50,791 nt of DNA, from contig CAZUFD010000005.1 in the NCBI GenBank assembly GCA_964619625.1, positions 3,635 to 54,425 on the forward strand, written 5' to 3'. Positions 1 to 30,568 of this stretch are shown piece by piece. The number at the start of each line of letters is the position of its first letter. Positions within the stretch are counted from its first letter, which is position 1. This DNA comes from an uncultured Gammaproteobacteria bacterium. Lineage in GTDB: Bacteria > Patescibacteriota > Patescibacteriia > Magasanikbacterales > GWA2-37-8. Both the position numbers and the translations under genes were made by a program. The notes under the pieces were generated by a model. The model saw nothing but the letters and a program-made list of their open reading frames with translations, was not told the origin of the DNA and made no database searches.

Positions 1-28
1 AGTCGGGATTGTTTTTTTATTCATTAGC

Positions 29-2245
29 TTATCTTCCTCTGCCGCCGCCATGTCCGCCTCTGCTTCCACCATGCCCACCGCCGCTGCGTGGAGGTCTTTC
101 AAATCTTGGCTGGTCTACATAGCCCTCTGGTTTTGGTAATAATTGCTTCATACTTAAATTAATACGTCCCATACTATCTATTTCCTTTACAACCACTTTT
201 ACCTTATCACCTAGATTCAACACATCTCCAGGGCTATTGGTGCGTGTCCAGGCTATTTCACTAACATGCACAAGTCCATCTTGACCCGGGAGCACCTGTA
301 CAAACGCGCCAAAATCTTCTATGCGCACAACCGTGCCTTCATAGACTTCGCCGGCGGTTACTTCATGAGTCAATTCTTTAACCCATTTAACGGCTTTTTC
401 CATGCCAACCGCATCGGAAGAAGTAACAAACACACGGCCATCGTCTTCAATATCAATAGACACGCCGGTTTCAGCAATAATTTTATTGATCATCTTGCCG
501 CCCGGACCAATCACATCGCGAATCTTGTCCGGATTGATATTGATAGTAACAATGCGAGGAGCATATTTGGACATTTCGGCGCGAGGAGCAGAAATAATAT
601 TGCCCATGAAACCTAAGATTTTTAATCTAGCTTCTCTGGACTGCGCAAAAGTTTGTTCAACAATTTCCCAGCTTAACCCTTCGGTTTTGGTATCCATTTG
701 CATGGCTGTGATGCCATCACTGGTACCGGCAATCTTGAAGTCCATGCCGCCCGGGCCGTCTTCCACATCTTGCAAGTCAGTAATAACTTTCCACTTGCCG
801 CTTTTATCACTAGCAAGACCCATCGCAATACCAGCAACCGGTTTTTTAATAGGCACGCCCGCATCCATAAGAGCCAGGGTAGAACCGCAAACCGAAGCCA
901 TAGAACTGGAGCCGTTTGATCCGAGCACTTCGGACACCACGCGCATAGCATATGGAAATTCTGTTTCCGGAGGAAGCATTGGTTCTAGTGCGCGTTCAGC
1001 CAAAGCGCCGTGACCAATAGCTCTGTTGCCCGGTCCGCGTAGCGGCCCAGTTTCGCCATAGGTAGCTGGAGTATCACTATAGTGATGCATGTAGCGTTTG
1101 GTTCCTTCTTCTTCCATGGTATCCAAAGTCTGTACATCGCCAGGAGCGCCCAACGTAACTACAGATAATACTTGAGTATCACCACGCATAAACATACCGG
1201 TGCCGTGGGTGCGAGGCAGTAAGCCAACTTCGGCGGAAAGCGCGCGCACATCGGTAATACCGCGGCCATCCAGACGCTGATTTTTATTTAAAATTTGTTC
1301 GGTGATATATTTTTCCACGTAAATTTTTACGCGGCCCAGCACAATTTTCATGATCGCTTCGTCTGTTTCTTTTGCGACTAGCATTTCTTTAATTGCGTCG
1401 GTGAATTTATTAACCAGGGTTACGCGCTCACGGCGGTCTATTTTTGGCGCGTCAAAAATCCAGTCTTCCACGTGACTGGCAACTAGTTCATCAGCTTCTT
1501 TTTCCGCTTTTTGTAAAGCAATTTGTTTTTCATTATCACTGTCAGATAAAACATTTTTTGCTTGTCCGGCTTCAGCTTGAATTTTTTTGATAAAATCCAA
1601 GAGAGGCCCCATTTCACTCGCGCCAAATTTCATCGCATCAATCACATCGCCTTCATTGGTTTCTTTACAACCAGCTTCTACCATAATAACTTTTTCCGGA
1701 GTGCCGGCCACCACAATATCCACGCTGCTTAGAGCTCGCTCGGCAATAGTCGGATTGATTTTCCACTTGCCATCTACGGAGCCGATGCGCACGCCGCCAA
1801 TCGGACCATTCCACGGAATAGAGGAAAGTGAAAGGGCAATGGAAGCGGCGACCATAGCCGGAATTTGTGAATCAACTTCGCCGTCAAAAGAAAGCGCGGT
1901 CAAAATTACCTGCACATCATTGCGAATGCTTTCATCAAAGAGCGGGCGAATAGCGCGATCTACCAAACGGCCCGATAAAATCGCGTCATCGCTTGGTCGG
2001 CCTTCACGTTTTATAAAACGGCTGCCTTTTATTTTTCCGGCCGCATATAATTTCTCCTCAAAGTTAACCATGAGCGGGAAAAAATCTATGCCGTCACGAG
2101 TATTTTTACTCATGGTGGCTGTCGCCAAAAATACAGTGTCGCCATAACTGACCACACACGAAGCATTGGCCTGTAAAGCCAACTTACCTGTTTCCACAGA
2201 GAGCGTTCTGCCGCCCCATTCCATGGCCCATTTTTTTACTGCCAT
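29..2245 (-). CDS. pnp: polyribonucleotide nucleotidyltransferase (PNPase)
   Basis: ORF 29..2260. PNPase-typical N-terminus (GRTLSVETGKLALQANASCVVSYGDTVFLATA), a KH-like segment (GPGGKMINKIIAETGVSIDIEDDGRV) and an S1 segment (GEVYEGTVVRIEDFGAFVQVLPGQDGLVHVSEI). The codon at 2260 is TTG; the first ATG (MAVKKW) is at 2245. The C-terminus is a Gly/Arg/His-rich tail (RSGGGHGGSRGGHGGGRGR). Confidence 0.95.
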   Translation of the reverse strand: MAVKKWAMEWGGRTLSVETGKLALQANASCVVSYGDTVFLATATMSKNTRDGIDFFPLMVNFEEKLYAAGKIKGSRFIKREGRPSDDAILSGRLVDRAIRPLFDESIRNDVQVILTALSFDGEVDSQIPAMVAASIALSLSSIPWNGPIGGVRIGSVDGKWKINPTIAERALSSVDIVVAGTPEKVIMVEAGCKETNEGDVIDAMKFGASEMGPLLDFIKKIQAEAGQAKNVLSDSDNEKQIALQKAEKEADELVASHVEDWIFDAPKIDRRERVTLVNKFTDAIKEMLVAKETDEAIMKIVLGRVKIYVEKYITEQILNKNQRLDGRGITDVRALSAEVGLLPRTHGTGMFMRGDTQVLSVVTLGAPGDVQTLDTMEEEGTKRYMHHYSDTPATYGETGPLRGPGNRAIGHGALAERALEPMLPPETEFPYAMRVVSEVLGSNGSSSMASVCGSTLALMDAGVPIKKPVAGIAMGLASDKSGKWKVITDLQDVEDGPGGMDFKIAGTSDGITAMQMDTKTEGLSWEIVEQTFAQSREARLKILGFMGNIISAPRAEMSKYAPRIVTININPDKIRDVIGPGGKMINKIIAETGVSIDIEDDGRVFVTSSDAVGMEKAVKWVKELTHEVTAGEVYEGTVVRIEDFGAFVQVLPGQDGLVHVSEIAWTRTNSPGDVLNLGDKVKVVVKEIDSMGRINLSMKQLLPKPEGYVDQPRFERPPRSGGGHGGSRGGHGGGRGR

Positions 2246-2393
2246 ATATTTTTTAACCAAAGCAACGCTTTGATACTTTCTGTTCCGCTAAACGGAACAA
2301 TAACCACGCTAAGCGCGGCGAAGATGATTTGAGAGCTACAGACCAAATATGGTCTATGTGTCCTCAAACCAACTTCATTATTAAATTAATTTT

Positions 2394-2993
2394 TTAAATC
2401 TTTTTTGGTGGAAAAGCCGGTTTCTTTGGTGGAAATATCGTTTTCTTTACTGGCTGGTATCTTTTATCTGCAATTAGAAACTTTGCTTTGTCCTGACTCA
2501 AGTCTATAAAATCATCGGCTTCTTCTATTAGCTTTCCCGAAGCTGTACCGCCAAATGACATTACTTCCACTTGTTTGCCTTGGCCTCTTAAATAATCTAC
2601 GAGCGGTACATAATCGCCGTCGCCGCTTACGAGCACTATCGCATCCAGAGCGGAAGAAAATCTAATGGCATCTACAGCCAACCCCACATCCCAGTCGGCT
2701 TTTTTTTCGCCGCCTAAGAAAATTTGCAGTGGTTTGTCTTTGGTTTCTATGCCTAAATTATACAACGCATCAAAAAACGGCTGTTCTTCCTTGCTTTCGG
2801 TGCTCACAACATAGGCAATCGCGCGGATAAGTTTACGACCGGCGGTGGCTTCCTTTACAATATTGCCAAAATTAACTTTGGCGCCAAATAAATTTTTGGC
2901 GCTGTAGTACATATTCTGTACATCAATAAACACCCCTACTCTCTGGTCGGGGTGTTTAAGCGTGTTTCTTTTTTTATTAATTACCTGACTCAT
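2394..2993 (-). CDS. NYN-domain (LabA/DUF88-like) putative ribonuclease
   Basis: 199-aa ORF with NYN-type motifs ([15 protein letters not shown] ... [30 protein letters not shown]). Its start overlaps the rpsO stop by 17 nt. It sits between rpsO and pnp. Confidence 0.75.
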
Positions 2994-3339
2994 GGTTTTG
3001 CTTCATTAAATCTTCGTCGCTCAAATCATCTTCAACTTCCACGGTAGAACCATCCGGTTTGGAGATTACTCTAGCTGGCTTGATTTTAAGTTTTTTCACC
3101 AATTCTTCGTAACTCTTTGGGTTTTCTTTTTTCAAATAACGCATCAAGTTGCGGCGGCTGCTTACCTTGCGGAGCAAACCTCGGCGAGAAGAATGGTCTT
3201 TGGCGTGGGTTTTCAAATGACCCGCAAGTTCCTCAATCTCAGCTGCTAAAATGGCAATCTGAACTTCGTTGGAACCAGTGTCACCCTCGTGTAACTGGAA
3301 CTTCTTGATTATCTGTTGTTTTTTCTTTTTGTCTAGCAT
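2977..3339 (-). CDS. rpsO: 30S ribosomal protein S15 with an acidic C-terminal extension
   Basis: S15 core is recognisable ([55 protein letters not shown]...[11 protein letters not shown]). It is followed by about 33 extra residues ([33 protein letters not shown]). Classic rpsO-upstream-of-pnp synteny. Confidence 0.92.
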
Positions 3340-3480
3340 ACAAAAATGTTGCTTAACGAGCTAGCCAGGAGTATGTTTCTTGGCAGTCCGCCCCCAAAAA
3401 TGGGGTTTATTAAATACGCCTGTAAGCTTATCCCAAAACTCAAAAAAAGTCAACCCCACAGAAGCTAAGCTATACAGCGT

Positions 3481-3828
3481 CTATTTTAGAAGATTATTAA
3501 AGACAAAGGTTGAAATTCCATAGGCAGCCACAACCAGAATAAAACCAATGGTAGCGGCAAACATCGCATCCTTGGCCTTGGTGGCAAATTCTTCATTCCC
3601 ACGGGCAGTCATCCACCGGAGTCCGGCATAAAACATAACGGCCAAAAAAACTATGCCGGTAAATGAGAGTACCATGCTTATAACCGTACTAATTACAGAA
3701 TAAATATTGGTTTCTTCGTACTGAGCTTTGTTGGCGGTTGCTTGCAGCCCAAATTGGGCGGCAACCGGAGCTGCCATGCTAAAAAGCGCGAAGAACAATA
3801 TAAAAACCAAAAAAAATTTTCTAACCAT
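3481..3828 (-). CDS. TrbC/VirB2-like (T4SS-pilin-like) small two-TM protein, paralog 1
   Basis: 115 aa: signal peptide (…SMAAPVAAQ), short variable region, TM1, conserved loop FYAGLRWMTARGNEEFATKAKD, then TM2. ATG confirmed at 3826-3828. Confidence 0.7.
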   Translation of the reverse strand: MVRKFFLVFILFFALFSMAAPVAAQFGLQATANKAQYEETNIYSVISTVISMVLSFTGIVFLAVMFYAGLRWMTARGNEEFATKAKDAMFAATIGFILVVAAYGISTFVFNNLLK

Positions 3829-3868
3829 ACCTATAATAACTGTATTATAGTGATAATTATACCATACC

Positions 3869-3897
3869 TTGATTTATCTGTAAAAATAAGGTAGAAT
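3869..3897 (+). promoter_or_regulatory. sigma70-like promoter for the tRNA-Arg/tRNA-His unit
   Basis: TTGATT (3869-3874), 17-nt spacer, TAGAAT (3892-3897). The tRNA 5' end is at 3913. Confidence 0.45.
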
Positions 3898-3912
3898 AGT
3901 TTTGCTTTTTTC

Positions 3913-3984
3913 GTCCTCATAGTTCAGTGGATAGAACACCAGCCTTCTAAGTTGGATACGTAGGTTCGATTCCTACTGAGGACA
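3913..3984 (+). tRNA. tRNA-Arg (anticodon TCT)
   Basis: Hand-folded cloverleaf: acceptor GTCCTCA/TGAGGAC, D arm GTTC..GAAC, anticodon stem CCAGC/GTTGG with loop CTTCTAA, T arm GTAGG-TTCGATT-CCTAC. No encoded CCA. Confidence 0.9.
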
Positions 3985-4079
3985 CGACGCCCAGCGTCGT
4001 AGGTGGCACGCTAAGCGTGCCACAAACGGAGTGTTAAACTAGCACACGTAGGCAGGCTTGGCGGTTAAATGCCAGTGAT

Positions 4080-4155
4080 GGTGGCCTTGGTATAACGGTT
4101 ATTACGTGAGATTGTGGATCTCGCAACACGGGTTCAACTCCCGTAGGCCACCCCA
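4080..4155 (+). tRNA. tRNA-His (anticodon GTG) with encoded G-1 and encoded CCA
   Basis: Acceptor GTGGCCT/AGGCCAC, anticodon stem TGAGA/TCTCG with loop TTGTGGA, T arm ACGGG-TTCAACT-CCCGT. The extra G at 4080 sits opposite discriminator C4152. CCA is at 4153-4155. Confidence 0.9.
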
Positions 4156-4172
4156 AATTAAAAGTTTAAGGT

Positions 4173-5261
4173 ATGCCAGAAGGTAAAAAGATACTTATTG
4201 TATCGTGCTCCACCGGATCCGGGCATTTTCGGGCCGCTGAAGCGCTTCGGCTTACCTGCGAAAGACTTTACCCAGATTCCCAAATAGCCCATCTTGATAT
4301 GGCCAACCATTTGGACGGCATCGCCTACATATATGTAGTGTCTTTTTATAGTTTCTTTTCTAAATTGATTCCCCTATCTTATAAAATTGTCTACCATGTA
4401 ACGGATCATTGGTTTGTGCAAAAACTATTCAAAATCCTGGCCCCGATTATGGCTATAGGAAGCAGAAAATTTATAAAACAGATAGATGATTACCGGGCAG
4501 ACCTCATAATTTCCACTCACTACTTACCTCAATTTATTTTGCCTAAAAAAAATACCGCTCCTTTTGCTGCGGTAGTAACCGATTATTATGCTCATAAAAT
4601 TTGGCTCTCCCCAAGAAATAAAAACTTATTCGTACCCACAGAAGAAGTAAAAAATGATTTAGCAAAAATCGGCATCAACTCTGTCGCTAGCGGCATTCCC
4701 ATTCACCCCAGCTTCTTTGAAGAAAAAAACACTCGAGAGTTAAGAACCAAATTTAATATTCATAATAATTGGCCTATTATATTACTAATGCCGATTTCTA
4801 GCGGAAATATAAAACCGGAGCAGGCGGTACGACATATTTTTAGCCATAATTTTAACCGGCCTCTCAATATTATCGCGATTTCCGGAAAAAATAATGAAAA
4901 AACATTTAATAAATTAAGCGAGTTAAAGCCCGGTGGGCAGCATAACTTTATTCTACTCAAAAATGTTGAAAATGTAGATGAGCTTATGAGAATTGCCGAT
5001 GTGATTATAAGCAAGGCCGGCGGACTCACCATTTCTGAAGCGTTATTTTTGCAAAAGCCAATTATTATTATCAATCCGATTCCCGGACAAGAAGATTATA
5101 ATACGGCATATTTGGAAAAAAACCAGTACGGTATGCAGGCACACTCAAGCGATGATTTGGTGAGTAAAATAGAACTTATACTTTCTAAACCTGATATGAT
5201 ACACAAAAAATCTTACCCTGATCCGAGTAAGATTATTTTGGAATATATTTTTAAAAATTGA
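4173..5261 (+). CDS. MGDG-synthase/UgtP-family diacylglycerol glycosyltransferase (GT28)
   Basis: 362 aa. The N-terminus (KKILIVSCSTGSGHFRAAEAL), VVTDYYAHKIWL and GIPIHPSFFEE align by eye with Bacillus UgtP (ILTANYGNGHVQVAK, VMTDFCLHKIWV, GIPIRPQFEE). The C-terminal half is GT-B like (ISKAGGLTISEAL). Confidence 0.8.
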   Translation: MPEGKKILIVSCSTGSGHFRAAEALRLTCERLYPDSQIAHLDMANHLDGIAYIYVVSFYSFFSKLIPLSYKIVYHVTDHWFVQKLFKILAPIMAIGSRKFIKQIDDYRADLIISTHYLPQFILPKKNTAPFAAVVTDYYAHKIWLSPRNKNLFVPTEEVKNDLAKIGINSVASGIPIHPSFFEEKNTRELRTKFNIHNNWPIILLMPISSGNIKPEQAVRHIFSHNFNRPLNIIAISGKNNEKTFNKLSELKPGGQHNFILLKNVENVDELMRIADVIISKAGGLTISEALFLQKPIIIINPIPGQEDYNTAYLEKNQYGMQAHSSDDLVSKIELILSKPDMIHKKSYPDPSKIILEYIFKN

Positions 5262-5270
5262 TCGGCACTT

Positions 5271-5753
5271 CTATCGCGCGCAATTTGGGTCTAATGGATT
5301 TTGCACACAATAATCATTATAATTTTGGCCCTGATTATTTCCTCCGGTCGTACTTGTTACAAGAGCTTTCGTAACAAAATAAGTAATAGAATAGGCTGCT
5401 AAAATTACAGCTAATCCAATGGCGCCATTATAGAGCAAACTTTTGGCTTTACCTATCTGCTCATCATTGCCGGCTGCGGTCATCCATAAAAATCCGGCGT
5501 AGACAATGAGCGCGAGAAATATCGTGCCAATTACTCCAAGTACTATGTTAATAATCCTAGCTGCCAGTGTACGCGGATCGGTAGGATTGTTAGGATTATT
5601 AAAATCTGCCCCGCTTGAACCGCCGGCAGCGCGTAACTGATCAAAGGCATCTTGGCGAGGATTTGAGCTTGAAGATTGGGCACCTACCGGTGTGGAATAT
5701 AAAACACAGAATATAGAGGTGAGAAAAAATGCCAGTGTAAGTATTTTTTTCAT
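5271..5753 (-). CDS. TrbC/VirB2-like two-TM pilin paralog 2
   Basis: 160 aa: signal peptide, variable Ser/Asn-rich region, loop VYAGFLWMTAAGNDEQIGKAKS, TM2. C-terminal two-Cys motif CVQNPLDPNCAR. Confidence 0.7.
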   Translation of the reverse strand: MKKILTLAFFLTSIFCVLYSTPVGAQSSSSNPRQDAFDQLRAAGGSSGADFNNPNNPTDPRTLAARIINIVLGVIGTIFLALIVYAGFLWMTAAGNDEQIGKAKSLLYNGAIGLAVILAAYSITYFVTKALVTSTTGGNNQGQNYNDYCVQNPLDPNCAR

Positions 5754-5764
5754 ATTATAATCAT

Positions 5765-6136
5765 TTACATCGTAGCTTTAAATACTTCGCCTAAAATAAA
5801 ATATGTAAGACTGTAGGAGACTAAAATAATAATCAAACCTACAATTGAAGTTTTTAAAATCCCCATGGCTTTCGTTACCTGTTCATCATTGCCGGCCGCG
5901 GTCATCCATAAAAATCCAGCGTACACGGTAAGGACGAGAAATAGTATGCCTAAAACTCCTAACACGGCTTTAATAATTTTACCCACAGTTTCTGAAAGAG
6001 TTGAGGCCCCCGCTTGTCCATAACCGCTTTTGTTTGCGATATCTTGAGAAAGATCAGTTTGAGCCAAAGCGGCGCTAACCGGCGTAAAAAAAATATTGAG
6101 CGCCAAAACGGAAATAAGGAAAAATTTTTTTATCAT
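5765..6136 (-). CDS. TrbC/VirB2-like two-TM pilin paralog 3
   Basis: ORF 5765..6202. I place the start at the ATG at 6134-6136 (MIKKFFLISVLALN) because the longer form overlaps the upstream gene end (6150). Loop VYAGFLWMTAAGNDEQVTKAMG. Confidence 0.7.
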   Translation of the reverse strand: MIKKFFLISVLALNIFFTPVSAALAQTDLSQDIANKSGYGQAGASTLSETVGKIIKAVLGVLGILFLVLTVYAGFLWMTAAGNDEQVTKAMGILKTSIVGLIIILVSYSLTYFILGEVFKATM

Positions 6137-6149
6137 AAGTATGGTTAAA

Positions 6150-6590
6150 TTATTGTGCACAGCTTGGATCCAGCGGATTTTGTACACAAAACTCATTAAC
6201 ATTTTGTTGATTATTGCCGCCAGCCGCTCCCAACCTGCTTGTTACAAAATAGGTAATAGCGTAAGCAGACATAACAATTACCAAACCTATTACCGCAGCT
6301 TTTAAAACTCCCATGGCTTTTGTCACCGTTTCTTCATTCCCTTGAGCGGTCATCCACATTATACCCGCGTAAATGGTCATGACCAAAAATATGGTGCCTA
6401 CCAAAGCGAGCACCGCTTTAATGACAGTTGCTATACTGGTGGCCAAATCTCCGGACACGCCAAGTCGTTCACCGCTTTCACCGCCGATATTGCCTAAAAT
6501 TTTACCGGCGTCTTTTAACCCCTGGGCCGAGACAAATATGGGCAGCATCATGGTTAGGGCTATAGCAGCTGTTAAAATAAATTTTTTCAT
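6150..6590 (-). CDS. TrbC/VirB2-like two-TM pilin paralog 4
   Basis: 146 aa: signal peptide (…IFVSAQG), loop IYAGIMWMTAQGNEETVTKAMG. C-terminal CVQNPLDPSCAQ, the same motif as paralog 2. Confidence 0.7.
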   Translation of the reverse strand: MKKFILTAAIALTMMLPIFVSAQGLKDAGKILGNIGGESGERLGVSGDLATSIATVIKAVLALVGTIFLVMTIYAGIMWMTAQGNEETVTKAMGVLKAAVIGLVIVMSAYAITYFVTSRLGAAGGNNQQNVNEFCVQNPLDPSCAQ

Positions 6591-6604
6591 ACGCTATGTT
6601 AGAT

Positions 6605-7129
6605 TTAAATATTCCTTTCACAATTACCACTTTGTACTGTCCCTACCCATCTACATAAAGGAACGCCAGTTTCATTATCGTATTGATTATTACATTCAAC
6701 CGCCTCCGTAATAAACGGACAATTTACTGTAGCCGCCGTCGGTGCCGGGGCATTATTGTCGGTACTTGTTAAGGCGCCAAAGACAAACCTGGATATTGCG
6801 TAGGCCGCAAGCACAATAATAAGGCCTATGGCGGCATGCTCCACAATACTTTTAGCTCTATCTACTCGTTCGCTATTGCCAAAAGCCATCATCCACAACA
6901 GACCGGCATATAAAATAAGGAGGAAAAATATGGCGCCCACAAAAGACAGAACCACTCCGACAATCGTACCAATTAATTCCGGCAGCGCTTGGTTGGCATT
7001 TACATTTGTACGACTGCCGATTAACTCTGTATTTCTGGCTGCGTCTTGTAAACCAAAATCTTCGGCAAACACAAAAATCGGCAACACTACTCCGATTACC
7101 GCTACAAGTAGAAATATTTTTTTAAACAT
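6605..7129 (-). CDS. TrbC/VirB2-like two-TM pilin paralog 5 with a 4-Cys C-terminal extension
   Basis: 174 aa: loop LYAGLLWMMAFGNSERVDRAKS. C-terminal tail VNCPFITEAVECNNQYDNETGVPLCRWVGTVQSGNCERNI. Confidence 0.65.
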   Translation of the reverse strand: MFKKIFLLVAVIGVVLPIFVFAEDFGLQDAARNTELIGSRTNVNANQALPELIGTIVGVVLSFVGAIFFLLILYAGLLWMMAFGNSERVDRAKSIVEHAAIGLIIVLAAYAISRFVFGALTSTDNNAPAPTAATVNCPFITEAVECNNQYDNETGVPLCRWVGTVQSGNCERNI

Positions 7130-7149
7130 ATATTTTAAGCGTACGATTT

Positions 7150-7239
7150 TGTCATCCCGAGCGTAGCCGAGGGATCCCTTATACCTGGTTATAACAAGTA
7201 CTTTGTTTAAGGGATTCCTCCACTTCGGTCGGAATGACA
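7150..7239. repeat. imperfect inverted-repeat (REP/MITE-like) intergenic element
   Basis: Left arm TGTCATCCCGAGCGTAGCCGAGGGATCCCTTA (7150-7181). The reverse complement of the right arm (7208-7239) is TGTCATTCCGACCGAAGTGGAGGAATCCCTTA. 26/32 positions match by hand alignment. Each arm also contains its own ATCCC..GGGAT / ATTCC..GGAAT mini-palindrome. Confidence 0.6.
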
Positions 7240-7316
7240 GCTAACCCAGAGAAATCGCGCTTGCCCGACTTAAACCAGCCAAACAAGCGCGTTTTTTCTC
7301 TGTATAATTATAATAA

Positions 7317-7700
7317 TTATGGTCCTGTAGTAGCTGATACCAAACTGTTGACAACGTACGTTGCCAAAGCGTAGGCAGACAAGATAATAGCCAAACCAAT
7401 AATACCGGAAAATATCCATTGTTTAGCTTCACCTGTTTGTTCATCATTACCACCGGCGGTCATCCATTTAAAACCACCGATAAGAATGATAACTACGGCT
7501 ACGATACCGAGAAGTCCCATAGCTGTACGAATAATACTAGCTACGGTAACGCGGATATCTTTTTGTCCCAAACCTGTGGCTTCTCCATATTGAATTCCCA
7601 AATCATTTGGGGTTACATCCGGAGTCTGAGCCATTACTACGGCCGGGGCGAGCATTGTAAGCGTGCCTAACATAGCAAGCACTTGTTTCAATTTCATCAT
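7317..7700 (-). CDS. TrbC/VirB2-like two-TM pilin paralog 6
   Basis: ORF 7317..7784. The likely start is the ATG at 7698-7700 (MMKLKQVLAMLG), preceded by AAGGGGGTGA, a good SD. Loop LIGGFKWMTAGGNDEQTGEAKQ. Confidence 0.7.
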   Translation of the reverse strand: MMKLKQVLAMLGTLTMLAPAVVMAQTPDVTPNDLGIQYGEATGLGQKDIRVTVASIIRTAMGLLGIVAVVIILIGGFKWMTAGGNDEQTGEAKQWIFSGIIGLAIILSAYALATYVVNSLVSATTGP

Positions 7701-7776
7701 ATTTTCACCCCCTTTCCATAAGAAAGAATGGTCATATATATCGTAACAATTTATAAAAATAGTATACCACACCTTT

Positions 7777-8310
7777 TTAGCCATTCCTAGTTAAAAAATT
7801 TAAGAAGGTGGACAATAGTATGTAGCTTCCCAAGACCAGTGCCACGCCAATCACCGCCCAAATCATGGTTTGCGTACCAGCCGTGACTTTTTCCGCATTA
7901 CCAGCCGACGTAAGCCACTGAAAACCGCCGTACACAAACATGAGCAAGGTTATAGCTCCGATAATTCCTAAGGCTGCTTTAATTACAGTGGCAATAATTA
8001 CCGAAGCTTCCGTTGTGCCTTTTTGCCCCGTGCCAATAGGATTTTCTAATTTACAAATTTCACGACCATTCTCTATGGTACAACCGGCGTTTGGCGTTTG
8101 GCCTGGCGTCTGTGTCTGACAAAGGCCAGCTGTCCATACTTCCTGCGAACCGGTACAATCTGATCGCAGACTTTGAATTTTTTGCTGGCTTGATTTATTA
8201 AAACAACAGCCAATGGTGATTCCTTGGGCAGATACTACTCCAAAAATACCAAACATTCCGAAAATTAAGACGGAAATCAGGTTAGATATTAAAAATATTT
8301 TTTTCATCAT
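7777..8310 (-). CDS. TrbC/VirB2-like pilin paralog 7 with a 6-Cys N-terminal ectodomain
   Basis: ORF 7777..8349. The start is set at the ATG at 8308-8310 (MMKKIFLISN), 4 nt after the upstream stop. The mature N-terminus is GITIGCCFNK...CTGSQEVWTAGLCQTQ...AGCTIENGREICK. Loop VYGGFQWLTSAGNAEKV. Confidence 0.65.
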   Translation of the reverse strand: MMKKIFLISNLISVLIFGMFGIFGVVSAQGITIGCCFNKSSQQKIQSLRSDCTGSQEVWTAGLCQTQTPGQTPNAGCTIENGREICKLENPIGTGQKGTTEASVIIATVIKAALGIIGAITLLMFVYGGFQWLTSAGNAEKVTAGTQTMIWAVIGVALVLGSYILLSTFLNFLTRNG

Positions 8311-8314
8311 AAGT

Positions 8315-9202
8315 TTATTTTGGCACAACACTAAACAAGAAATTAACAAGGATATAGCTAAACAGCATCACCGTTATGCCGAGCGTTGTCCATACTAATA
8401 TTTGTTTGGCTTTATCTATCCGTTCACTGGAACCACTGGCGGTCATCCACAAAATACCCGCAAATACGTATAAAACCAGGGTTATGGAACCGATAAAAGC
8501 CATCAGTAAATTTATAACACGCCTAATTAAGGCTGCGGGCGTACGGATATTTGCCGGGTTAAGGACTTCTGAGCTCGTATCTTGTAATTCGCCTATATTT
8601 GTACCGGTCGGCGGACAAGCATCTTCGGCTAAGTCACAGGTGGGACAAGAGCTTTGGCAAAAATAGTTGGCTGCTTGATAATTTACCGCCTCTATAGTTT
8701 CACATTGCTCTCCTTGAAAACATCTCCATTTTTTTAATGGCGGACATTTGGTTGCGAGCGCTTCTCCATATTGACATTTTTTCACGGCGTCAGCATGATC
8801 AAACGCCTGTATATCTTCACAATTTCCGTTAGTAACACAGCCAAAGGGTTCTGGACAAGGATTTTTGCTTAGCTTACAACCTGATGGGATAGGCCCAAGG
8901 GGGCAACGAGTATGGTCTTCATAATTACAAATCGGCTTTGGTTTTCCACAAAAAAAATTACATTCCATCCTCGCGTCGTAATATAAACTTTCTATTACTG
9001 TTATACAGGCGGCGGTTTGGCGGGTACTACACTCCGCCCCCCTTGCCCTTTCGTAAGGATCAGCGGCTATTTTTGAGCATGTATCGGCTTCTCTTGAGCA
9101 GCTATACTCCTCAAAAGCGCTGACACTGGCAACTTTAAAATTTAAAAAAACAATTCCAAGCACAGCAATAAATAGGATTGTATTTGTTTTCAAAAATTTC
9201 AT
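8315..9202 (-). CDS. Cys-rich secreted domain (~200 aa, 20 Cys) fused to a TrbC/VirB2-like pilin core, paralog 8
   Basis: 295 aa: signal peptide, then 20 cysteines by my count between residues ~35 and ~195. The C-terminal part is the pilin core (VFAGILWMTASGSSERIDKAKQ plus two TM segments). Confidence 0.65.
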   Translation of the reverse strand: MKFLKTNTILFIAVLGIVFLNFKVASVSAFEEYSCSREADTCSKIAADPYERARGAECSTRQTAACITVIESLYYDARMECNFFCGKPKPICNYEDHTRCPLGPIPSGCKLSKNPCPEPFGCVTNGNCEDIQAFDHADAVKKCQYGEALATKCPPLKKWRCFQGEQCETIEAVNYQAANYFCQSSCPTCDLAEDACPPTGTNIGELQDTSSEVLNPANIRTPAALIRRVINLLMAFIGSITLVLYVFAGILWMTASGSSERIDKAKQILVWTTLGITVMLFSYILVNFLFSVVPK

Positions 9203-9279
9203 AATCGAAATGAGTGAGTGAAGTGATGAGCTTGCTCAATCACTTCCGAACGAATTAGTTTATATCCATAGATATAATT

Positions 9280-9696
9280 TTATTTAAGTCCATACCCGCC
9301 CTTTAACCCCACGGCCGTACCCAAGAAACGTACCAGCATATACGCGCCAAAAACCACTACCAAACCGATAATGGCCGCCGTAATAATTTCCGTGCCTTTT
9401 TTGGTTTGCTCGGCATTGCCTCGTGATAAAATAAGCGTAAAGCCGCCGTAAATAAAAAATAATAAAGCAAGCGCGCCGACAATGCCAAATAAATAATTAA
9501 CAACATTCAACAGTAAAATAACATAAACACTTACACTGCGGCATTCACCTTCGGTGGCGGGATCGCCTGTGGGATTATCTAGAGCACACTGCGGAATAAA
9601 TTTACTATCCCCAGTTTGCGCTAAAACCTGAGCGGCATTAAAAAATACCGAAGTCCAAAGTAGAAAAACAAATATAATTTTTACAAATTTCGGCAT
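9280..9696 (-). CDS. divergent TrbC/VirB2-like two-TM pilin paralog 9
   Basis: 138 aa: signal peptide (…VLAQTG), 2-Cys N-terminal loop (QCALDNPTGDPATEGEC). Degenerate core IYGGFTLILSRGNAEQTKKG. Confidence 0.55.
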   Translation of the reverse strand: MPKFVKIIFVFLLWTSVFFNAAQVLAQTGDSKFIPQCALDNPTGDPATEGECRSVSVYVILLLNVVNYLFGIVGALALLFFIYGGFTLILSRGNAEQTKKGTEIITAAIIGLVVVFGAYMLVRFLGTAVGLKGGYGLK

Positions 9697-9697
9697 A

Positions 9698-11062
9698 CTA
9701 AAATGTCTGATTTATCTTTGCCGCCGCTCTATTTAATACTTCCTGTTTCCATTGTAATTCTCTGCCTTCCGGAGCCGGCAAGAGCCATTCATGAGTCATA
9801 TCTGCCATAGCTTTTACCGTCGCGTCGTAATCTTTTCCTTTATACCAACTATCGGAAATAAGCACTTGCGAAGCAAACGGATACAACTGGTCATTATCAA
9901 GCTGGCCGGCAATATAGGCGCGTAAAGCCGCCGGACGACCGGATTGGTCTAGGTAATCTTTGGTGACTTTGGAGTGAGCCAAGTAATTGAGCAGCGCCCA
10001 AGCTTCGTTCTTATGTTTTGATTTATCGGTAACTGCTTGCACCCAATAATTTGCGACATTCACCGGCTGTTCGGGATTGAGCTGCAGCATTGGCAGCACC
10101 GCCATATTTAACTGCGGGGCGCGGGCTTTGATGACCGGATAGTGATAGCTGTACCCAAAGAAAAAGGCTAAAGAACCATTAATAAATTTATCCAGCGACA
10201 TTGCCATATCTTCGTTCCAGGTATAGGTATCACGCGAAGAATTGGCAAAATCCGTATAAAAATTCATGACTGAAATGGCTGGATTTGCCTGATCGCGAGT
10301 AGAAAAATTCACCCGACCGTCTTTAATAAGATTAACGCTGCTTTGTTTAAAAAGTATATATACAATATCTTCAAATCCGGAAATATTGTTGCCCGTACCC
10401 AAGGCGGTGCCGGCCTGCACAATATTACCCGAGGTTCTATCAAATTTGGTTATTTTTTTAACGGCTTCTTGAAAATCTTCCCAAGTTTTTGGCGGTTCGG
10501 CAATATTGGCTCTATCTAACAAATCTTTATTATAATAAAGCGCCATATTTTCAAGTGAAAGGGGCAAACCGTAGATTTGATTATCCATGATTACGTCATT
10601 TTTAACCGCCTGCACATATTCCTTTTCCAATTGATTGGGCGTTAGTAAATTTTGATTTACGGTACTGACCGTGGTCTTGGTGCCGAGCGTGGTTTTTTCT
10701 ACGCGCACGGTGGTATCAGAAACACTTCCCGGCATGGCCGCCAGTTTTGGTTTATAAAAAGTCATCCAGCGATTCCGCACGGAAATTATATCCGGCCCGC
10801 GATCTTCGGCTAAAGCCTCCAAAAGACGCGGATAGATTTCGTCAACGCGAAGTTGTTTTAAGTTTATGGTTAAATATGGCCTATCCGCCTTATACTTGTC
10901 TATCTGCGCTTGCAGGGCATCCACATCATCAAACACTGTCCAATACTCCAGGGTTACACGCTGGGTAGCCGTTTGTTCTTCTTTTGACAAGCCCTTACAA
11001 CCCAAACCGGCCAAGGGTAAAACTAGGATAAAGCTTAAAATGAAGAATAGTTTTTTAGACAT
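9698..11062 (-). CDS. extracellular solute-binding lipoprotein (ABC sugar-type family 1)
   Basis: 454 aa. Lipobox LAGLGC, overall SBP_bac_1-like layout (LEYWTVFDDVDALQAQIDKYK..., GLPLSLENMALYYNKDLL). No permease or ATPase genes are adjacent. Confidence 0.7.
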   Translation of the reverse strand: MSKKLFFILSFILVLPLAGLGCKGLSKEEQTATQRVTLEYWTVFDDVDALQAQIDKYKADRPYLTINLKQLRVDEIYPRLLEALAEDRGPDIISVRNRWMTFYKPKLAAMPGSVSDTTVRVEKTTLGTKTTVSTVNQNLLTPNQLEKEYVQAVKNDVIMDNQIYGLPLSLENMALYYNKDLLDRANIAEPPKTWEDFQEAVKKITKFDRTSGNIVQAGTALGTGNNISGFEDIVYILFKQSSVNLIKDGRVNFSTRDQANPAISVMNFYTDFANSSRDTYTWNEDMAMSLDKFINGSLAFFFGYSYHYPVIKARAPQLNMAVLPMLQLNPEQPVNVANYWVQAVTDKSKHKNEAWALLNYLAHSKVTKDYLDQSGRPAALRAYIAGQLDNDQLYPFASQVLISDSWYKGKDYDATVKAMADMTHEWLLPAPEGRELQWKQEVLNRAAAKINQTF

Positions 11063-11143: not shown

Positions 11144-12010
11144 TTATATCACACTCTTTAGATAATCTCTAAAATCATCTGCTAATTTTTTATCACGTAA
11201 AGCAAAATCAACATTGGCTTTAAGATAGCCAAGTTTTGAACCGGTATCATAATATGTGCCATCAACTAAACAGGCATAATAAGGCCGCTTCTTCAAAACT
11301 TTGGTATGGGCATCTGCCAGCCACAACTCTCCATCTTTGCCCAATTTCGTTTTTTCTAAGGCTTCAAAAATATCCGGTGTTAAAACAAAACCACCAAGGA
11401 TTGCCAGGTTAGATGGCGCTTTTTCCGGCCCGGGTTTTTCTACGATATTTTTTACTTGATATATATTTTCTTCTACCTCTTTCGCGTCAATAATCCCATA
11501 CTTTTTAGTATCCGCCTTGCTTACTTTACAAGTAGTAATAACCGGATCGCCATACTTTTCATATACTTCTATAAGTTGTTTTAGTTGTGGTTTGTGCGGC
11601 GCATAAAAAAATTCATCCCCCCACATGACTGCAAACGGCTCATCACCGATAATATCTTTGGCGCATAAAACAGGCGTACCGTTTCCATAAGGTCCTTTTT
11701 GTCTAATGAAAATAAAATTGGCCAGATCAGCAATTTTCTTTACTTCTTCGGCAACATCTTCTTTGCCTTGTTTTTTGAGCAAATTTATCAGTTCGTAGTT
11801 GGGACTGAAGTGATCTTCTACGGCCCGTTTGCTGGGGCCGGTTACCATAATAATGTCGGTGATGCCGGATTTGACCGCATCTTCAACCACGTATTGAATA
11901 ATCGGTTTGTCTACGACCGGCAACATTTCTTTGGGCTGGGCTTTGGTGGCGGGCAAAAATCTGGTGCCTAGGCCGGCGACGGGAATTACGAGTTTACGGA
12001 TTTTAGACAT
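11144..12010 (-). CDS. galU: UTP--glucose-1-phosphate uridylyltransferase
   Basis: 288 aa. The N-terminus KLVIPVAGLGTRFLPATKAQPKEMLPVVDKPIIQYVVEDAV is canonical GalU. Confidence 0.9.
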   Translation of the reverse strand: MSKIRKLVIPVAGLGTRFLPATKAQPKEMLPVVDKPIIQYVVEDAVKSGITDIIMVTGPSKRAVEDHFSPNYELINLLKKQGKEDVAEEVKKIADLANFIFIRQKGPYGNGTPVLCAKDIIGDEPFAVMWGDEFFYAPHKPQLKQLIEVYEKYGDPVITTCKVSKADTKKYGIIDAKEVEENIYQVKNIVEKPGPEKAPSNLAILGGFVLTPDIFEALEKTKLGKDGELWLADAHTKVLKKRPYYACLVDGTYYDTGSKLGYLKANVDFALRDKKLADDFRDYLKSVI

Positions 12011-12088: not shown

Positions 12089-13858
12089 TCATTTTACAAT
12101 CGCATAGCTGCCGGCCTGAAAAGCCCACGAGCCGCCGGGCCCGCTGCTAAAGCTGGCACTTTGGAGGCCGGTTTGGTAATTAATAACGGCGTTATTTTCC
12201 AAACGAATTAAATTGGCGGTTAATTGAAGCGGCGCGGCGTTATTTTCTACTTCAATAGTGCCGTTGGGAGCATAATAAATACTACTGGAGACATTGTTGT
12301 TTAATTCAATAGCCATGCCGGTGCCGGAATAATTGCTTATTAACATTAGATAATTGCCGGGATTGCTATTGCCCGTCACTAACGCGTTATTGTTAAGGGT
12401 TATTTTGCCATTTACGGTTGAACTTGCAGGATCGTCCGCTATTAAAACCGTGCCGCCGCTGCCTAACGACGCGCTGCCGCGAATAGCCGAATTATTATCT
12501 ACTATAATATTTCCGGCCACCCAAACCGGGCCAGCCAACCACACGGTGCTGTTATTTATTATGGTTAAATTACCGTTAATTTTAACCGGGCCGAGCGTGG
12601 CGCTACTGCCATCCAATGTTAAACTGTTAATTGTGCCGCCGGCTGCGGCCGCATCTTCCCAATTGGTAATTTGGGCCTGCGAAATTGGCATGGCTTGCGG
12701 AGCTGGAGGGGTGCTGCTCGGGTAAGAAACGCCGGAAACTGAACAAGTGTTGGTGGTTTGGTAATAGGCACTCCCGCCAATAGTACAGCTGGTAATGGCT
12801 GGCGCTCGTACCGTGCCGTTTACCGTTACGCCGTCCAAAGAAGTGGCCACGCCGCCCATAATAGTTTGAAAATTCAAATCCCCGCCTACAGCGTTCCAAA
12901 CCGGGGTAGAGGCATTCCAGTTAGTGCTATATTTGCCGGTATTACCGGCATAACTATCGGTGTTATCCATACCCCAAATGTAATAATGGTTGCTATTTGA
13001 TCCCGAAGAAAGCATTAACCAATATTTTTGCCCGCCGATCAATGTAGGGTTGGATGTAAAAGCGCCTTCAATAAATGCATAGCTGCCGGTAATGGTAGAG
13101 GCAGAGATAGCGCCGCTCGCCAGTTCGGTTTTGGATGGCTGGCCGTTATTATCAGAAACTATTCTAATTGTTAAATTTCCGGGATTACCATTTTTTTTCA
13201 AATAAACTTTTATTTTGGTAATAATATTGGTAGCGCTAGGAATAAAACTCTGAGCAACATCCTTGCGCGCGCTCTCATTGCCAAATAAAAAATCGCTGTT
13301 TTGGGTTTGGAAATTCTGATCCGGCGCGGCAGATGAACCGGCCGCCACCGACGCATCACCGGTAATTACGCCCGAACCGCTAATGTTGCCGCTGACATAT
13401 ACATTGCCGTTAACTTGGGAGTTGTTTCCCATACTTAGCCCGCCATAACCGGACTGCACGCCAAATTGAAAATTGACTACAGTTAAATCAATCGTAGCGA
13501 TAGCGCTTACAATACGCTCGGCCACGGCTCCATTTTGGTAAATAATTCTGCCCGTAGAAACTATTTGCTTACGATTTGAATCTACAGTGGAAATGGTGGT
13601 GCTAAAGCTGCCATCGCCTAGTGTAATATTACTTTCACCGCTAAAATTTGCATCCTGATTAAGCTGATACATCGCTTGGTCAAGGCCGGCTTCCGCAATG
13701 GCAAGCGCCCCGGCGCGAGATACGGTTTGCCGCTCGGCGCGAGAATGAACATTGGTTAGACCTATCAAACTAACGGACAACATTAAAAGTATCGCCATAA
13801 AAACCATAGCGAACAAAATGATCTGCCCTGATTGATTCATTTTAAAAATTTTAACCAC
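12089..13858 (-). CDS. PilX_N-type large pilus-associated protein (putative tip or minor pilin)
   Basis: 589 aa. N-terminal hydrophobic segment plus AERQTVSRAGALAIAEAGLDQAMYQLNQD, typical of the PilX N-terminal domain. The remainder is Gly/Asn/Ser-rich and beta-helix-like (NGNVYVSGNISGSGVITGDASV; LENNAVINYQ). Confidence 0.6.
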   Translation of the reverse strand: MVKIFKMNQSGQIILFAMVFMAILLMLSVSLIGLTNVHSRAERQTVSRAGALAIAEAGLDQAMYQLNQDANFSGESNITLGDGSFSTTISTVDSNRKQIVSTGRIIYQNGAVAERIVSAIATIDLTVVNFQFGVQSGYGGLSMGNNSQVNGNVYVSGNISGSGVITGDASVAAGSSAAPDQNFQTQNSDFLFGNESARKDVAQSFIPSATNIITKIKVYLKKNGNPGNLTIRIVSDNNGQPSKTELASGAISASTITGSYAFIEGAFTSNPTLIGGQKYWLMLSSGSNSNHYYIWGMDNTDSYAGNTGKYSTNWNASTPVWNAVGGDLNFQTIMGGVATSLDGVTVNGTVRAPAITSCTIGGSAYYQTTNTCSVSGVSYPSSTPPAPQAMPISQAQITNWEDAAAAGGTINSLTLDGSSATLGPVKINGNLTIINNSTVWLAGPVWVAGNIIVDNNSAIRGSASLGSGGTVLIADDPASSTVNGKITLNNNALVTGNSNPGNYLMLISNYSGTGMAIELNNNVSSSIYYAPNGTIEVENNAAPLQLTANLIRLENNAVINYQTGLQSASFSSGPGGSWAFQAGSYAIVK

Positions 13859-13865
13859 AAAATAA

Positions 13866-14441
13866 TTAGTAATTTTTTAAAAAAATCTGTTCGCTGGCAC
13901 GACTCTGCACCTGCGCTCTATTTTCCGTCGCCGTAGTGGTTACGGTCGCGGTCACTTTTTTTACCTGTGTAAAATCCACACTATCATAGCTAAAATTTAC
14001 ACCCACAATTACATTGCTTAATAATTTTAATCCGCCGATACGCGCGCTGGCGGCGTTTGTTTCTAGATAGCGATAAAAATTTGTGCTGCTGACATAAAAA
14101 GCGGCATAATCCCACGTGTCATTTATAGTCTTGCCGGTAGAATCAATGGCCGGGATTTGCAAAACCAAAGTTGAGGAACCGGAAGCGTAATTTACGCTAT
14201 TTATAGTGCGGCTTGAGAGAACGCGATAGGCTTGCGCGGTTAAATTGGAAACATCGGTAAGCGAAGTCCGCGCGCCGCCCACAGACGCCAAATGGGCGCC
14301 GCTTAAATTGAAAATTTTTCCAAACGCTTCATACACTCCGAATAACGCTAGTGAGATTAAAACAAAGAGGCCGATGGAAATTAAAGTTTCTATGAGCGTT
14401 ACGCCTTTGTTTGAATTTTTTTTATTAAAAAAATTAATCAT
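13866..14441 (-). CDS. prepilin-type N-terminal cleavage/methylation domain protein (minor pilin)
   Basis: 191 aa. KG/VTLIETLISIGLFVLISLALFGV is a class III signal peptide with Glu at +5. Confidence 0.75.
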   Translation of the reverse strand: MINFFNKKNSNKGVTLIETLISIGLFVLISLALFGVYEAFGKIFNLSGAHLASVGGARTSLTDVSNLTAQAYRVLSSRTINSVNYASGSSTLVLQIPAIDSTGKTINDTWDYAAFYVSSTNFYRYLETNAASARIGGLKLLSNVIVGVNFSYDSVDFTQVKKVTATVTTTATENRAQVQSRASEQIFLKNY

Positions 14442-14848
14442 AGGCCCCCTTGGCTAATTAAAGTAGTAAGCGAAACAGTGTGGCGTTTTTGCGCGCCCGG
14501 TTCTTGCCAAGACACTTCTACTAATACCTGTTTGGTTCTGTCGTTGTATTGGCTAACAGTCGTGCTGGCGCTGGCTTCTGGCAGAGACGAGAGTTGCGCG
14601 TCGCTAAACGCGCTGCTTGAGGGCAAGCCAGCATATCCCAAAGCGCGCATATTTTCTAATTGGCTCTGGGCAATACGCAAAGCCAAATCTTGATGCTTAA
14701 CATTGCGATTTAAAATTACGGCGGTGGCGGCTGCCTGAAATAATACAAAAAAAACTGCGATAATCGCCAAACTTACGAGCGCTTCGAGCAGTGTACTGCC
14801 GCGGCTGTTTAAACGGCGCTTATTTTTAAACTTATATATTCTAAACAT
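14438..14848 (-). CDS. prepilin-type N-terminal cleavage/methylation domain protein (PilV/GspI-like minor pilin)
   Basis: 136 aa. RG/STLLEALVSLAIIAVFFVLF. It overlaps the downstream gene by 4 nt, suggesting translational coupling. Confidence 0.75.
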   Translation of the reverse strand: MFRIYKFKNKRRLNSRGSTLLEALVSLAIIAVFFVLFQAAATAVILNRNVKHQDLALRIAQSQLENMRALGYAGLPSSSAFSDAQLSSLPEASASTTVSQYNDRTKQVLVEVSWQEPGAQKRHTVSLTTLISQGGL

Positions 14849-30555: not shown

Positions 30556-30568
30556 AATTCATTTTTCA

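Follow-up and report, generated by a model that had tools for sequence, protein, structure and literature searches.

Pilin arrays of Patescibacteria and the array examined here

Patescibacteria, a very large bacterial group of which most members are uncultured, live attached to other bacteria, and tandem arrays of genes for VirB2-like pilins of type IV secretion systems (T4SSs) have been described in them; parts of a recent survey (Quinonero-Coronel et al. 2025, PMC12102498) report 441 such arrays, of 2-11 pilin genes each, in 383 Patescibacteria assemblies. Here we examine an array at positions 3481-9696 of a window of 50,791 bases (the whole stretch of DNA analysed), which comes from a 54-kb contig of an uncultured groundwater member of the Patescibacteria (Magasanikbacterales). 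The array comprises nine minus-strand pilin genes, numbered W1-W9 from 9696 down to 3481, and we consider it probable that this chromosomal VirB2-like array encodes a heteromeric T4SS-type surface filament or structure, with one major and several decorated minor subunits and with its ATPase encoded elsewhere. On a pilus mechanism as such our confidence is about evenly divided.

The same parts of the survey place VirB4 in 2,417 of 3,035 Patescibacteria genomes, and a pilin gene near virB4 in 1,135 of the 1,948 assemblies holding both, the two lying apart in ~42%; array members have a mean identity of ~25% and a maximum of 54%, and antigenic variation or host-range adaptation is suggested by analogy with Bartonella and Anaplasma. 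Patescibacteria VirB4 is related to systems of the MPF_FATA type (MPF, mating-pair formation), and in the class ABY1, to which Magasanikbacteria belong, virB4 loci are found close to comF/recG/radA; in part of Table S1 all three ABY1 genomes, two of them Magasanikbacteria, are VirB4 positive. The predicted pilins of Southlakia epibionticum are essential and are encoded within its T4SS cluster (PMC10633639), and a 2025 review counts six VirB2-like pilins with the 'potential to elaborate conjugative pili' (PMC12857230). The T4SS and pilin array are essential in the single Patescibacteria species tested, with a function stated to be unknown (PMC10633639, PMC11665869). The TM7x array is another of the closest known systems.

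The array in the window resembles those in the cited parts of the survey in phylum, in family (PF18895), in its tandem, co-directional and divergent copies, in its chromosomal location without a relaxase and in having one non-pilin gene interposed; nine copies fall within the published range, and the full-length identities of 26-39% compare with the published mean and maximum. It contains at least two PF18895 or PF04956 genes in tandem or with one non-pilin gene between them, which is how such arrays are defined. It differs from Southlakia ML1 (SEML1_0006-0019; Wang et al. 2023, PMC10633639), whose array is inside the T4SS cluster, in being unlinked to virB4, as are 80 related loci. The survey, in the parts cited, highlights Microgenomatia and Saccharimonadia, whereas the present array is from ABY1/Magasanikbacteria, and those parts do not report positional orthology of nine members, a context of GalU, solute-binding protein (SBP), array and UgtP-like enzyme, arrays of 12-14 members, or giant and multi-hairpin fusions. 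Since arrays of this kind were published in 2025, we regard the locus as a typical new example and not as a new system.

Related loci came from a genome scan at one genome per species, using a four-member sub-alignment of the pilins as query, which gave >580 confirmed loci; the best 80 were analysed. Nearly all of these 80 are from Magasanikbacteria or other Patescibacteria, 'Gammaproteobacteria' in record titles being a generic label. The closest is a Ca. Magasanikbacteria groundwater metagenome-assembled genome (MAG), JACOYB010000006.1 (locus L001), with 86-95% DNA identity to positions 1-9682 of the window; we refer to it as the sister strain. Judged by these relatives, the host genome is a Patescibacterium (Candidatus Magasanikbacteria, GTDB class ABY1), and its gene content is also typical of the group.

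Nine pilins with a common plan

The original prediction, made from the letters of the DNA alone, described nine minus-strand open reading frames (ORFs), and all are present at their predicted positions with their loop strings correctly read; a six-frame regular-expression search finds these nine sites only in the 50,791 bases. W1 (9280..9696, 138 amino acids [aa]), the first gene, lies directly after the stop of the upstream SBP gene (9698) and has a signal peptide, two transmembrane (TM) helices and two cysteines in its ectodomain. It is followed by W2 (8315..9202, 295 aa), in which a 203-aa ectodomain with 20 cysteines precedes the hairpin core; W3 (7777..8310, 177 aa from the ATG at 8310), with six ectodomain cysteines; W4 (7317..7700, 127 aa from the ATG at 7700); W5 (6605..7129, 174 aa), with a 62-aa C-terminal tail containing four cysteines; W6 (6150..6590, 146 aa), with the C-terminal C-x7-C tail CVQNPLDPSC; W7 (5765..6136, 123 aa from the ATG at 6136); and W8 (5271..5753, 160 aa), with the C-x7-C tail CVQNPLDPNC. 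W9 (3481..3828, 115 aa) is the smallest, is isolated and has no cysteine. Mechanical ORFs for W3, W4 and W7 extend to 8349, 7784 and 6202, respectively; the true starts are most likely the inner ones, because an MKK-type signal peptide begins there and the overlaps with upstream genes vanish.

The eight genes W1-W8 are contiguous and W9 is set apart by a glycosyltransferase gene and two tRNA genes; as had been claimed, the array is interrupted only by a tRNA-Arg, a tRNA-His, the plus-strand glycosyltransferase and an inverted-repeat element (7150-7239). The genes are co-directional with intergenic spacings of 4-77 nucleotides (nt), a 187-nt spacer excepted. Upstream of W4 there is a strong Shine-Dalgarno-like GGGGGTG; inspection for such sites was otherwise uninformative, since a clear one was found at W4 only.

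As predicted, all nine proteins share one plan, in which a signal peptide and a variable ectodomain precede a conserved two-helix hairpin. The ectodomains range from 24 to 203 aa and the C-terminal tails from 5 to 62 aa, with two TM helices and a short loop containing lysine or arginine between them, and A|Q stands at the predicted cleavage site in seven of the nine. Export by Sec followed by cleavage by signal peptidase I is the most likely route for each pilin. Cysteine counts are even both in the N-terminal ectodomains (0, 2, 6 or 20) and in the tails that contain them (2, 2 and 4), which fits a placement of both ends outside the cell and the loop inside. The mature protein would be a membrane-borne helical hairpin with the ectodomain and tail outside and the W-M-T-A-x-G-N-x-E..KAK loop in the cytoplasm. 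In VirB2-type propilins the loop is likewise cytoplasmic before assembly; an earlier proposal that a cytoplasmic loop would speak against a pilin was therefore misconceived.

An AlphaFold2 model of W6, built from a 50-sequence alignment, forms a hairpin (H49-81/H86-124) with a predicted local distance difference test score (pLDDT) of 82-90. The 20 cysteines of W2 include three repeats of ~30 aa with four cysteines each; its model has a pLDDT of 79 overall and >90 for residues ~110-195, and a Foldseek search of the PDB found no significant neighbour for the cysteine-rich ectodomain.

Family membership and probable remote homology to VirB2

The original assignment to the T4SS_pilin family was well founded. 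PF18895 matches all nine proteins, eight of them above its gathering score of 26.6 bits (W1, 44.2 bits, E 2e-11; W4, 41.4; W7, 38.9; W3, 37.8; W6, 37.5; W8, 37.0; W9, 33.0; W5, 31.6) and W2 slightly below it (24.7 bits, E 2.5e-5), so we assign the nine to this family with high confidence on the profile matches. W2 orthologues carry PF18895 in precomputed annotation, as do all 120 listed among the 162 homologues of W6, and NCBI gives the name 'pilin' to some homologues of W6 and of W2. Searched against 1.84 billion representatives, a profile built from the nine proteins recovers 83,069 representative clusters at E<=1e-3 and, at the stricter limit of E<=1e-10, 30,370; by this count the pilin family of the array is very large.

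The relation to VirB2 proper, also part of the original prediction, probably holds in remote form. On one side, the TrbC/VirB2 family PF04956 (gathering score 27.9 bits) matches only three of the nine, at 14.3-17.6 bits and E values from 0.0045 (W8) to 0.048, all below the gathering score; a 674-aa relative in the sister MAG (locus L064) reaches 23.9 bits. On the other, we collected the family of VirB2 from the Ti plasmid, aligned 35 members and compared the resulting profile with that of the pilin family using hhalign, which gave a probability of 69% (68.9%; usual confidence begins at 90-95%) and an E value of 4.5e-5 over 69 collinear columns spanning the whole mature VirB2; the alignment of the nine pilins alone gave 66%. 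In the hhalign alignment the G-I/L-x-W-M motifs coincide and the loop is 8 residues longer in the array pilins. Among 3,875 ORFs searched by phmmer with Ti VirB2, the array pilins are the only matches. Remote homology of the array pilins to true VirB2 is likely on this evidence.

Compared with the VirB2/TrbC T-pilins (Agrobacterium, PF04956, 8fai), the array pilins share the A|Q at the predicted cleavage site, the expected N-out/C-out topology and a mature core of ~70 residues with two hydrophobic helices and a short loop beginning G-I/L-x-W-M. They differ in the longer loop (GN-x-E..KAK), the variable ectodomains and the Cys-loop C-terminal tails; moreover, in contrast to the MPF_T setting of the Ti plasmid, the host is monoderm, there are nine copies in place of one, and VirB1, VirB3 and VirB4 are not neighbours. 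NF045849, the family of Mbov_0395/MMCAP2_0565 from a Mycoplasma integrative and conjugative element, is similar in being a two-helix hairpin of ~80 aa from a monoderm host with an MPF_FATA-type system. It matches eight of the nine pilins (E 4e-10 to 3.5e-4), all below its curated cut-off of 40 bits, the best being W7 with 39.3 bits and the seven others scoring 20.2-33.1 bits; W2 has no match. The Mycoplasma protein differs further in being encoded by a single-copy gene in a mobile element, and a literature search for Mbov_0395 found nothing relevant.

Foldseek with the W6 model gave no match at E<=0.001; the T-pilus VirB2 (8fai_A) ranked 8th, with an E value of 6.5 and a target-normalised template modelling score of 0.53, and the search is non-discriminating because a helical hairpin is too simple a fold. 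A PDB sequence search with the family profile returned spurious matches only, in which the AG-x-W-x-T-x-GN motif was aligned with designed 'Pizza' repeat proteins. There was no match to W7 by tblastn in 72,556 plasmids, which gave no connection to known conjugative plasmids, and no meaningful phage family for the array pilins in PHROGs, and we rejected identities as holins or transporters, the Pfam matches to holins, DUF898, DctQ and VKOR being sub-threshold hydrophobic noise.

Absence of T4SS genes beside the arrays

VirB4, VirB6, VirB8-11 and the type IV coupling protein are missing from the window, as had been noted: none is found by Pfam, screened over ORFs of at least 110 aa, or by phmmer with the VirB/VirD4 proteins of the Ti plasmid. 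The search extends to the 80 related loci, totalling 1.24 Mb, in which phmmer with Ti VirB1-11 and VirD4 found no VirB4, VirB6, VirB8 or VirD4, and VirB4 lies within 10 kb of the pilins in 0 of 80. Walker-A ORFs of at least 450 aa near the arrays were considered as VirB4 and rejected; they are SMC, ComM-type Mg-chelatase-like ATPases, UvrA, IF-2, DnaA, FtsH and a PilB-type ATPase. The original prediction treated this lack of neighbouring machinery as unusual, which does not hold up: such arrays are published, pilins lie near virB4 in just 1,135 of the 1,948 surveyed assemblies, and not one of the 80 relatives is linked. The lack of machinery beside the array is the norm of the lineage.

The alternative offered in the original prediction was a different membrane system that borrows the pilin fold. 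In such a system the PF18895 hairpin of this lineage would be a membrane module that oligomerises to build, or serves to anchor, an envelope structure independent of any T4SS, for instance a heteromeric membrane ring or sheet displaying the ectodomains; this structure may act together with a glycolipid produced by GalU and the UgtP-like enzyme, whose genes are linked to the array. The lack of any T4SS gene within 10 kb in all 80 loci speaks for such a structure, as does what accompanies the array instead: an SBP gene in 37 loci and galU in 30, both upstream, and a UgtP-like lipid glycosyltransferase gene adjoining it in 20. The same core also occurs as the N-terminal anchor of Ig-domain proteins of 600-3,500 aa at a second locus beside signal peptidase I, single polypeptides carry 2-17 hairpins, and the similarity to VirB2 is remote. 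We nevertheless hold it unlikely, since homologous pilins of Saccharimonadia lie inside the T4SS cluster and are essential like the other T4SS genes, and since the survey, in its cited parts, finds a pilin gene near virB4 in more than a thousand assemblies (1,135) and VirB4 nearly universal in the phylum, Magasanikbacteria included. Decorated hairpins with both ends out are, besides, compatible with the known packing of VirB2-type pili: in the F- and T-pilus structures both pilin termini face outwards.

A quite improbable variant, for Magasanikbacteria-like Patescibacteria, would make the PF18895 hairpin a modular co-assembling envelope subunit and not simply a T4SS pilin. The nine positionally conserved paralogs, the giant pilins of 600-3,500 aa and the fusions of 2-17 hairpins would together build a heteromeric structure at the surface, on which disulfide-rich and Ig-like modules are displayed and which is genetically coupled to glycolipid synthesis (GalU and the UgtP-like glycosyltransferase) instead of VirB4. 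If true, this could be a filament or lattice that contains lipid and differs from canonical conjugative pili, possibly independent of VirB4.

The second type of locus occurs in 19 of the 80 loci and has the order signal peptidase I (16 of 19), histidyl-tRNA synthetase (17 of 19), a 555-860-aa protein and then a protein of 1,241-3,482 aa. In both large proteins a signal peptide comes first, then a PF18895 core at about residues 50-170 and after it Ig-like domains (Big_5, TIG or Big_7). In the sister MAG the locus is at L064:7425-19224 (JACOYB010000005.1), and the others are L018, L020, L025, L031, L033, L035, L038, L039, L046, L050, L052-L054, L057, L060, L062, L063 and L069. We found no mention of such 'giant pilin-core' proteins in the parts of the literature on Patescibacteria pilins consulted, and a giant-gene preprint has no content on Candidate Phyla Radiation (CPR) pilins.

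Many of the top library matches are single polypeptides with 2-17 hairpin units, such as P0331 (820 aa, 8 hairpins), P0335 (1,775 aa, 17 hairpins) and P0336 (232 aa, 2 hairpins). Only the first unit has a signal peptide, and these are therefore genuine fusions and not the result of read-through. Such fusions imply that distinct hairpins are packed next to one another within a single assembly, and they raise doubt whether every member of the family is an extruded pilus subunit.

The copies are positional orthologues under purifying selection

Array members in the related loci were counted with a purpose-built hidden Markov model of the pilin core, which identified 61 array-type loci among the 80. 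Nine is the modal size (16 of 61), with recurrence of the 8+1 layout, and 15 of the 61 hold 10-14 members. Across 16 loci, W1 has its positional orthologue at ordinal 1 in all 16 and W2, always the large member, at ordinal 2 in 15; overall, W1-W4 have their best match at the same ordinal in 15 or 16 loci, and W5-W9 are mostly collinear. Orthologue identities across these loci are about 40-80%, W4 being the best conserved (56-81%), against the 26-39% of the paralogs (full-length, to W1), whose cores have a mean identity of 37% (range, 25-55%).

In the sister strain all nine pilins find 1:1 orthologues, at amino acid identities of 72-94%. The pooled ratio of nonsynonymous to synonymous substitution rates (dN/dS) between the two is 0.09 for the core, 0.21 for the N-terminal ectodomain, 0.38 for the signal peptide and 0.49 for the C-terminal tail, the last value arising because one tail (W6) is replaced; per gene, where computable, the core values are 0.03-0.27. 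W9 is the extreme, with 112 of 115 residues identical and a core dN/dS of 0.03. The N termini had been called hypervariable, which is apt among paralogs but not between sister strains, where the ectodomains are conserved. Comparison of relatives along the lines first suggested thus gives nine as the modal copy number and ectodomains that are largely conserved in the sister strain. By these alignments the nine paralogs are ancient positional orthologues under purifying selection.

The original prediction favoured a diversified repertoire, in which the copies are alternative versions of one surface subunit that serve immune-like evasion or host-strain matching, and the idea is also floated in the cited parts of the survey (PMC12102498) and proposed for the multicopy VirB2 of Anaplasma and Bartonella. 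The paralogs do differ most in their exposed parts, the ectodomain evolves faster than the core, the W6 tail differs between strains (and is W8-like here), and the analogy with Anaplasma and Bartonella has been drawn in the literature. The prediction is not borne out, however, and we now think a repertoire decidedly unlikely. In 16 genomes every copy is matched one-to-one by an orthologue in its own position, with identities as low as about 40%, and ectodomains at least 90% conserved between sister strains are under purifying selection. There are no gene-conversion tracts among the copies (no tract of identical DNA, the best match reaching 77% over 112 nt), and the array has neither long inverted repeats nor invertible segments. 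The operon-like spacing, in addition, implies co-expression, and the natural multi-hairpin fusions imply simultaneous use. Orthology, purifying selection, the absence of variation machinery and the predicted expression units all argue for co-expressed, differentiated subunits and against a fast-changing repertoire.

Rickettsiales and Bartonella (Anaplasma phagocytophilum, PMC3556328; Rickettsia rvh, PMC2653234) are similar in carrying divergent tandem VirB2 copies away from the other T4SS genes; they are reduced-genome, obligately host-associated bacteria, and their surface-exposed VirB2 is thought to serve variation or host interaction. Their pilins differ in belonging to PF04956 and a diderm MPF_T system and in varying at the strain level, in contrast to the positional conservation and purifying selection seen here. 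The likeness is an analogy and not shared membership.

The W6 (6150-6225) and W8 (5271-5345) tails share the motif CVQNPLDPxC, found in just 3 of 498 pilin ORFs, and are 71% identical in DNA compared with 55% for the cores; W6 of the sister strain has an unrelated 50-aa tail with four cysteines in its place. Tail exchange between these two paralogs is possible on the sequence evidence and is the sole hint of exchange in the array.

The small size of the ORFs and the marginal Pfam score of W2 might point to duplicates of some small membrane-protein gene that are decayed, without function or there by chance. The selection and synteny data refute this, nine intact frames, constrained cores, orthologues kept across many genomes and a family of 83,069 representative clusters at E<=1e-3 making it exceedingly improbable.

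A proposed heteromeric surface structure

The preferred reading of the array, a T4SS-type structure built from several kinds of subunit, begins with its expression. Tight co-directional spacing, as in an operon, implies co-expression, and the nine pilins are probably made together from three transcription units. Two of these, W1-W4 and W5-W8, are probably separated by the spacer at 7130..7316 (minus strand; 187 nt), which lies between W4 and W5 and would form two very stable RNA hairpins (dG -82.6 kcal/mol, z -9.8): a terminator-like stem at 7256-7291 and an imperfect palindrome of 90 nt at 7150-7239, with ends GTCATYC...GRATGAC. Directly upstream of W9 is a promoter-like site (3856..3884, minus strand; TTTACA-17-TATAAT with an extended TG), identified as a consensus match of 11/12 positions.

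The terminator-like hairpin is kept in the sister strain (L001:2576-2828), where a larger palindrome holds a nested second palindromic element, like a small mobile palindromic element. The 90-nt palindrome occurs once in the window, is absent from the other loci and gives only a sub-threshold Rfam match (WsnRNA46, 27.8 versus 65.3 bits); we set aside a role for it in a switch on these grounds and treat it as a small palindromic intergenic element.

The nine subunits would then co-assemble into one surface structure, with W9 as the candidate major subunit and W1-W3, W5, W6 and W8 as decorated minor subunits carrying disulfide-rich modules. We infer that the structure would be a pilus of T4SS type, assembled by MPF_FATA-related VirB4/VirB6 machinery whose genes lie at another chromosomal site in nearly all Patescibacteria, and that it would serve in contact with the host bacterium. 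Family membership, topology features, synteny, orthology and selection are what the sequences show; polymerisation, dependence on VirB4 and a part in host contact go beyond them.

Several points weigh against this proposal. The array pilins reach no more than sub-threshold scores with the TrbC/VirB2 profile, the modelled fold is too simple for a structure search to tell apart (8fai_A ranks 8th), and the array is unlinked to any T4SS gene in 80 of 80 related loci. The candidacy of W9 as the major pilin relies on its consensus promoter match, small size and conservation. A canonical extruded pilus does not easily accommodate fusions with as many as 17 hairpins or extensions reaching about 3,400 aa. 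No filament has been seen for any PF18895 protein, and the literature goes no further than the 'potential to elaborate conjugative pili' (PMC12857230).

Conserved neighbours and other features of the window

The conserved gene order is GalU, SBP, eight pilins, UgtP-like glycosyltransferase, one pilin and S15, the last lying downstream in 19 loci. In the window, the genes for GalU (UTP-glucose-1-phosphate uridylyltransferase; 11144-12010; Pfam, with TIGR01099 at 339.5 bits against a cut-off of 326.8) and the extracellular solute-binding protein (9698-11062; Pfam) are on the minus strand upstream of the array. The UgtP-like lipid glycosyltransferase (4173..5261, plus strand) has a MGDG_synth N-domain and a GT28 C-domain by Pfam and is convergent with W8; in NCBIfam it comes closest to diglucosyl-diacylglycerol synthase (E 7.6e-50), without reaching the equivalog cut-off. 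Pilins lie on both sides of this gene in 16 loci, and glycosyltransferase identity is as low as 22%. Between it and W9 are tRNA-Arg(TCT) (3913-3985) and tRNA-His(GTG) (4081-4155), both on the plus strand and found by ARAGORN and Rfam. The recurrent order suggests a link between a glycolipid and the pilins. Solved conjugative pili contain one lipid per pilin, and the idea of a glycolipid partner is therefore speculative but testable.

Further genes recognised in the window by Pfam and NCBIfam encode PNPase, an NYN-domain protein, S15, two N_methyl pseudopilins, RuvB, a class II ribonucleotide reductase, SpoIID, cohesin/dockerin and Ig-domain proteins, a 5,093-aa protein and a flippase; for five ORFs neither database gives a family match. 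At 12089-14848 (minus strand), ~2.4 kb upstream of the array, the two N_methyl type IV pilin-like proteins (136 and 191 aa) are followed by a 589-aa protein with an N-terminal TM helix and no family match, a minor-pilin set of the type IV pilus/type II secretion kind. Adjacent surface-protein genes at 27896-31891 (minus strand) encode a cohesin and Big_13 protein (597 aa), a dockerin and Big_6 protein (440 aa) and a 316-aa ORF without family match; in Southlakia the envelope proteins that are essential include one with a dockerin domain (PMC10633639). The 5,093-aa ORF (33674-48955, minus strand) has LVIVD repeats, a lactonase-like propeller and Gly_rich_2 in its C-terminal half and no Pfam match in its N-terminal 2,652 aa, and the region at 40-48 kb has an unusually strong GC skew (+0.22 to +0.28).

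Two observations concern other genomes. The 16S rRNA gene of the sister MAG (L064:4630-6250), read by eye, has an apparent AT-rich insertion of ~120 nt close to the 5' end (at about 4700-4815); CPR bacteria are known for insertions of this sort in rRNA. In a Falkowbacteria MAG, DnaA (L030:16431-17816) lies ~4.4 kb, measured as the gap between gene ends, from a six-member pilin array, which fits a published note that T4SS genes are often near the replication origin in Patescibacteria.

Implications

The window adds no new kind of system to those described in Patescibacteria, but the comparison with its relatives sharpens the question: the copies act like a stable set of specialised subunits and unlike a repertoire in rapid change. 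The array travels with genes for glycolipid synthesis and not with a secretion ATPase. If the subunits are a fixed, differentiated set, the nine pilins would be co-expressed in fixed ratios, with one dominant small subunit and decorated minor subunits.

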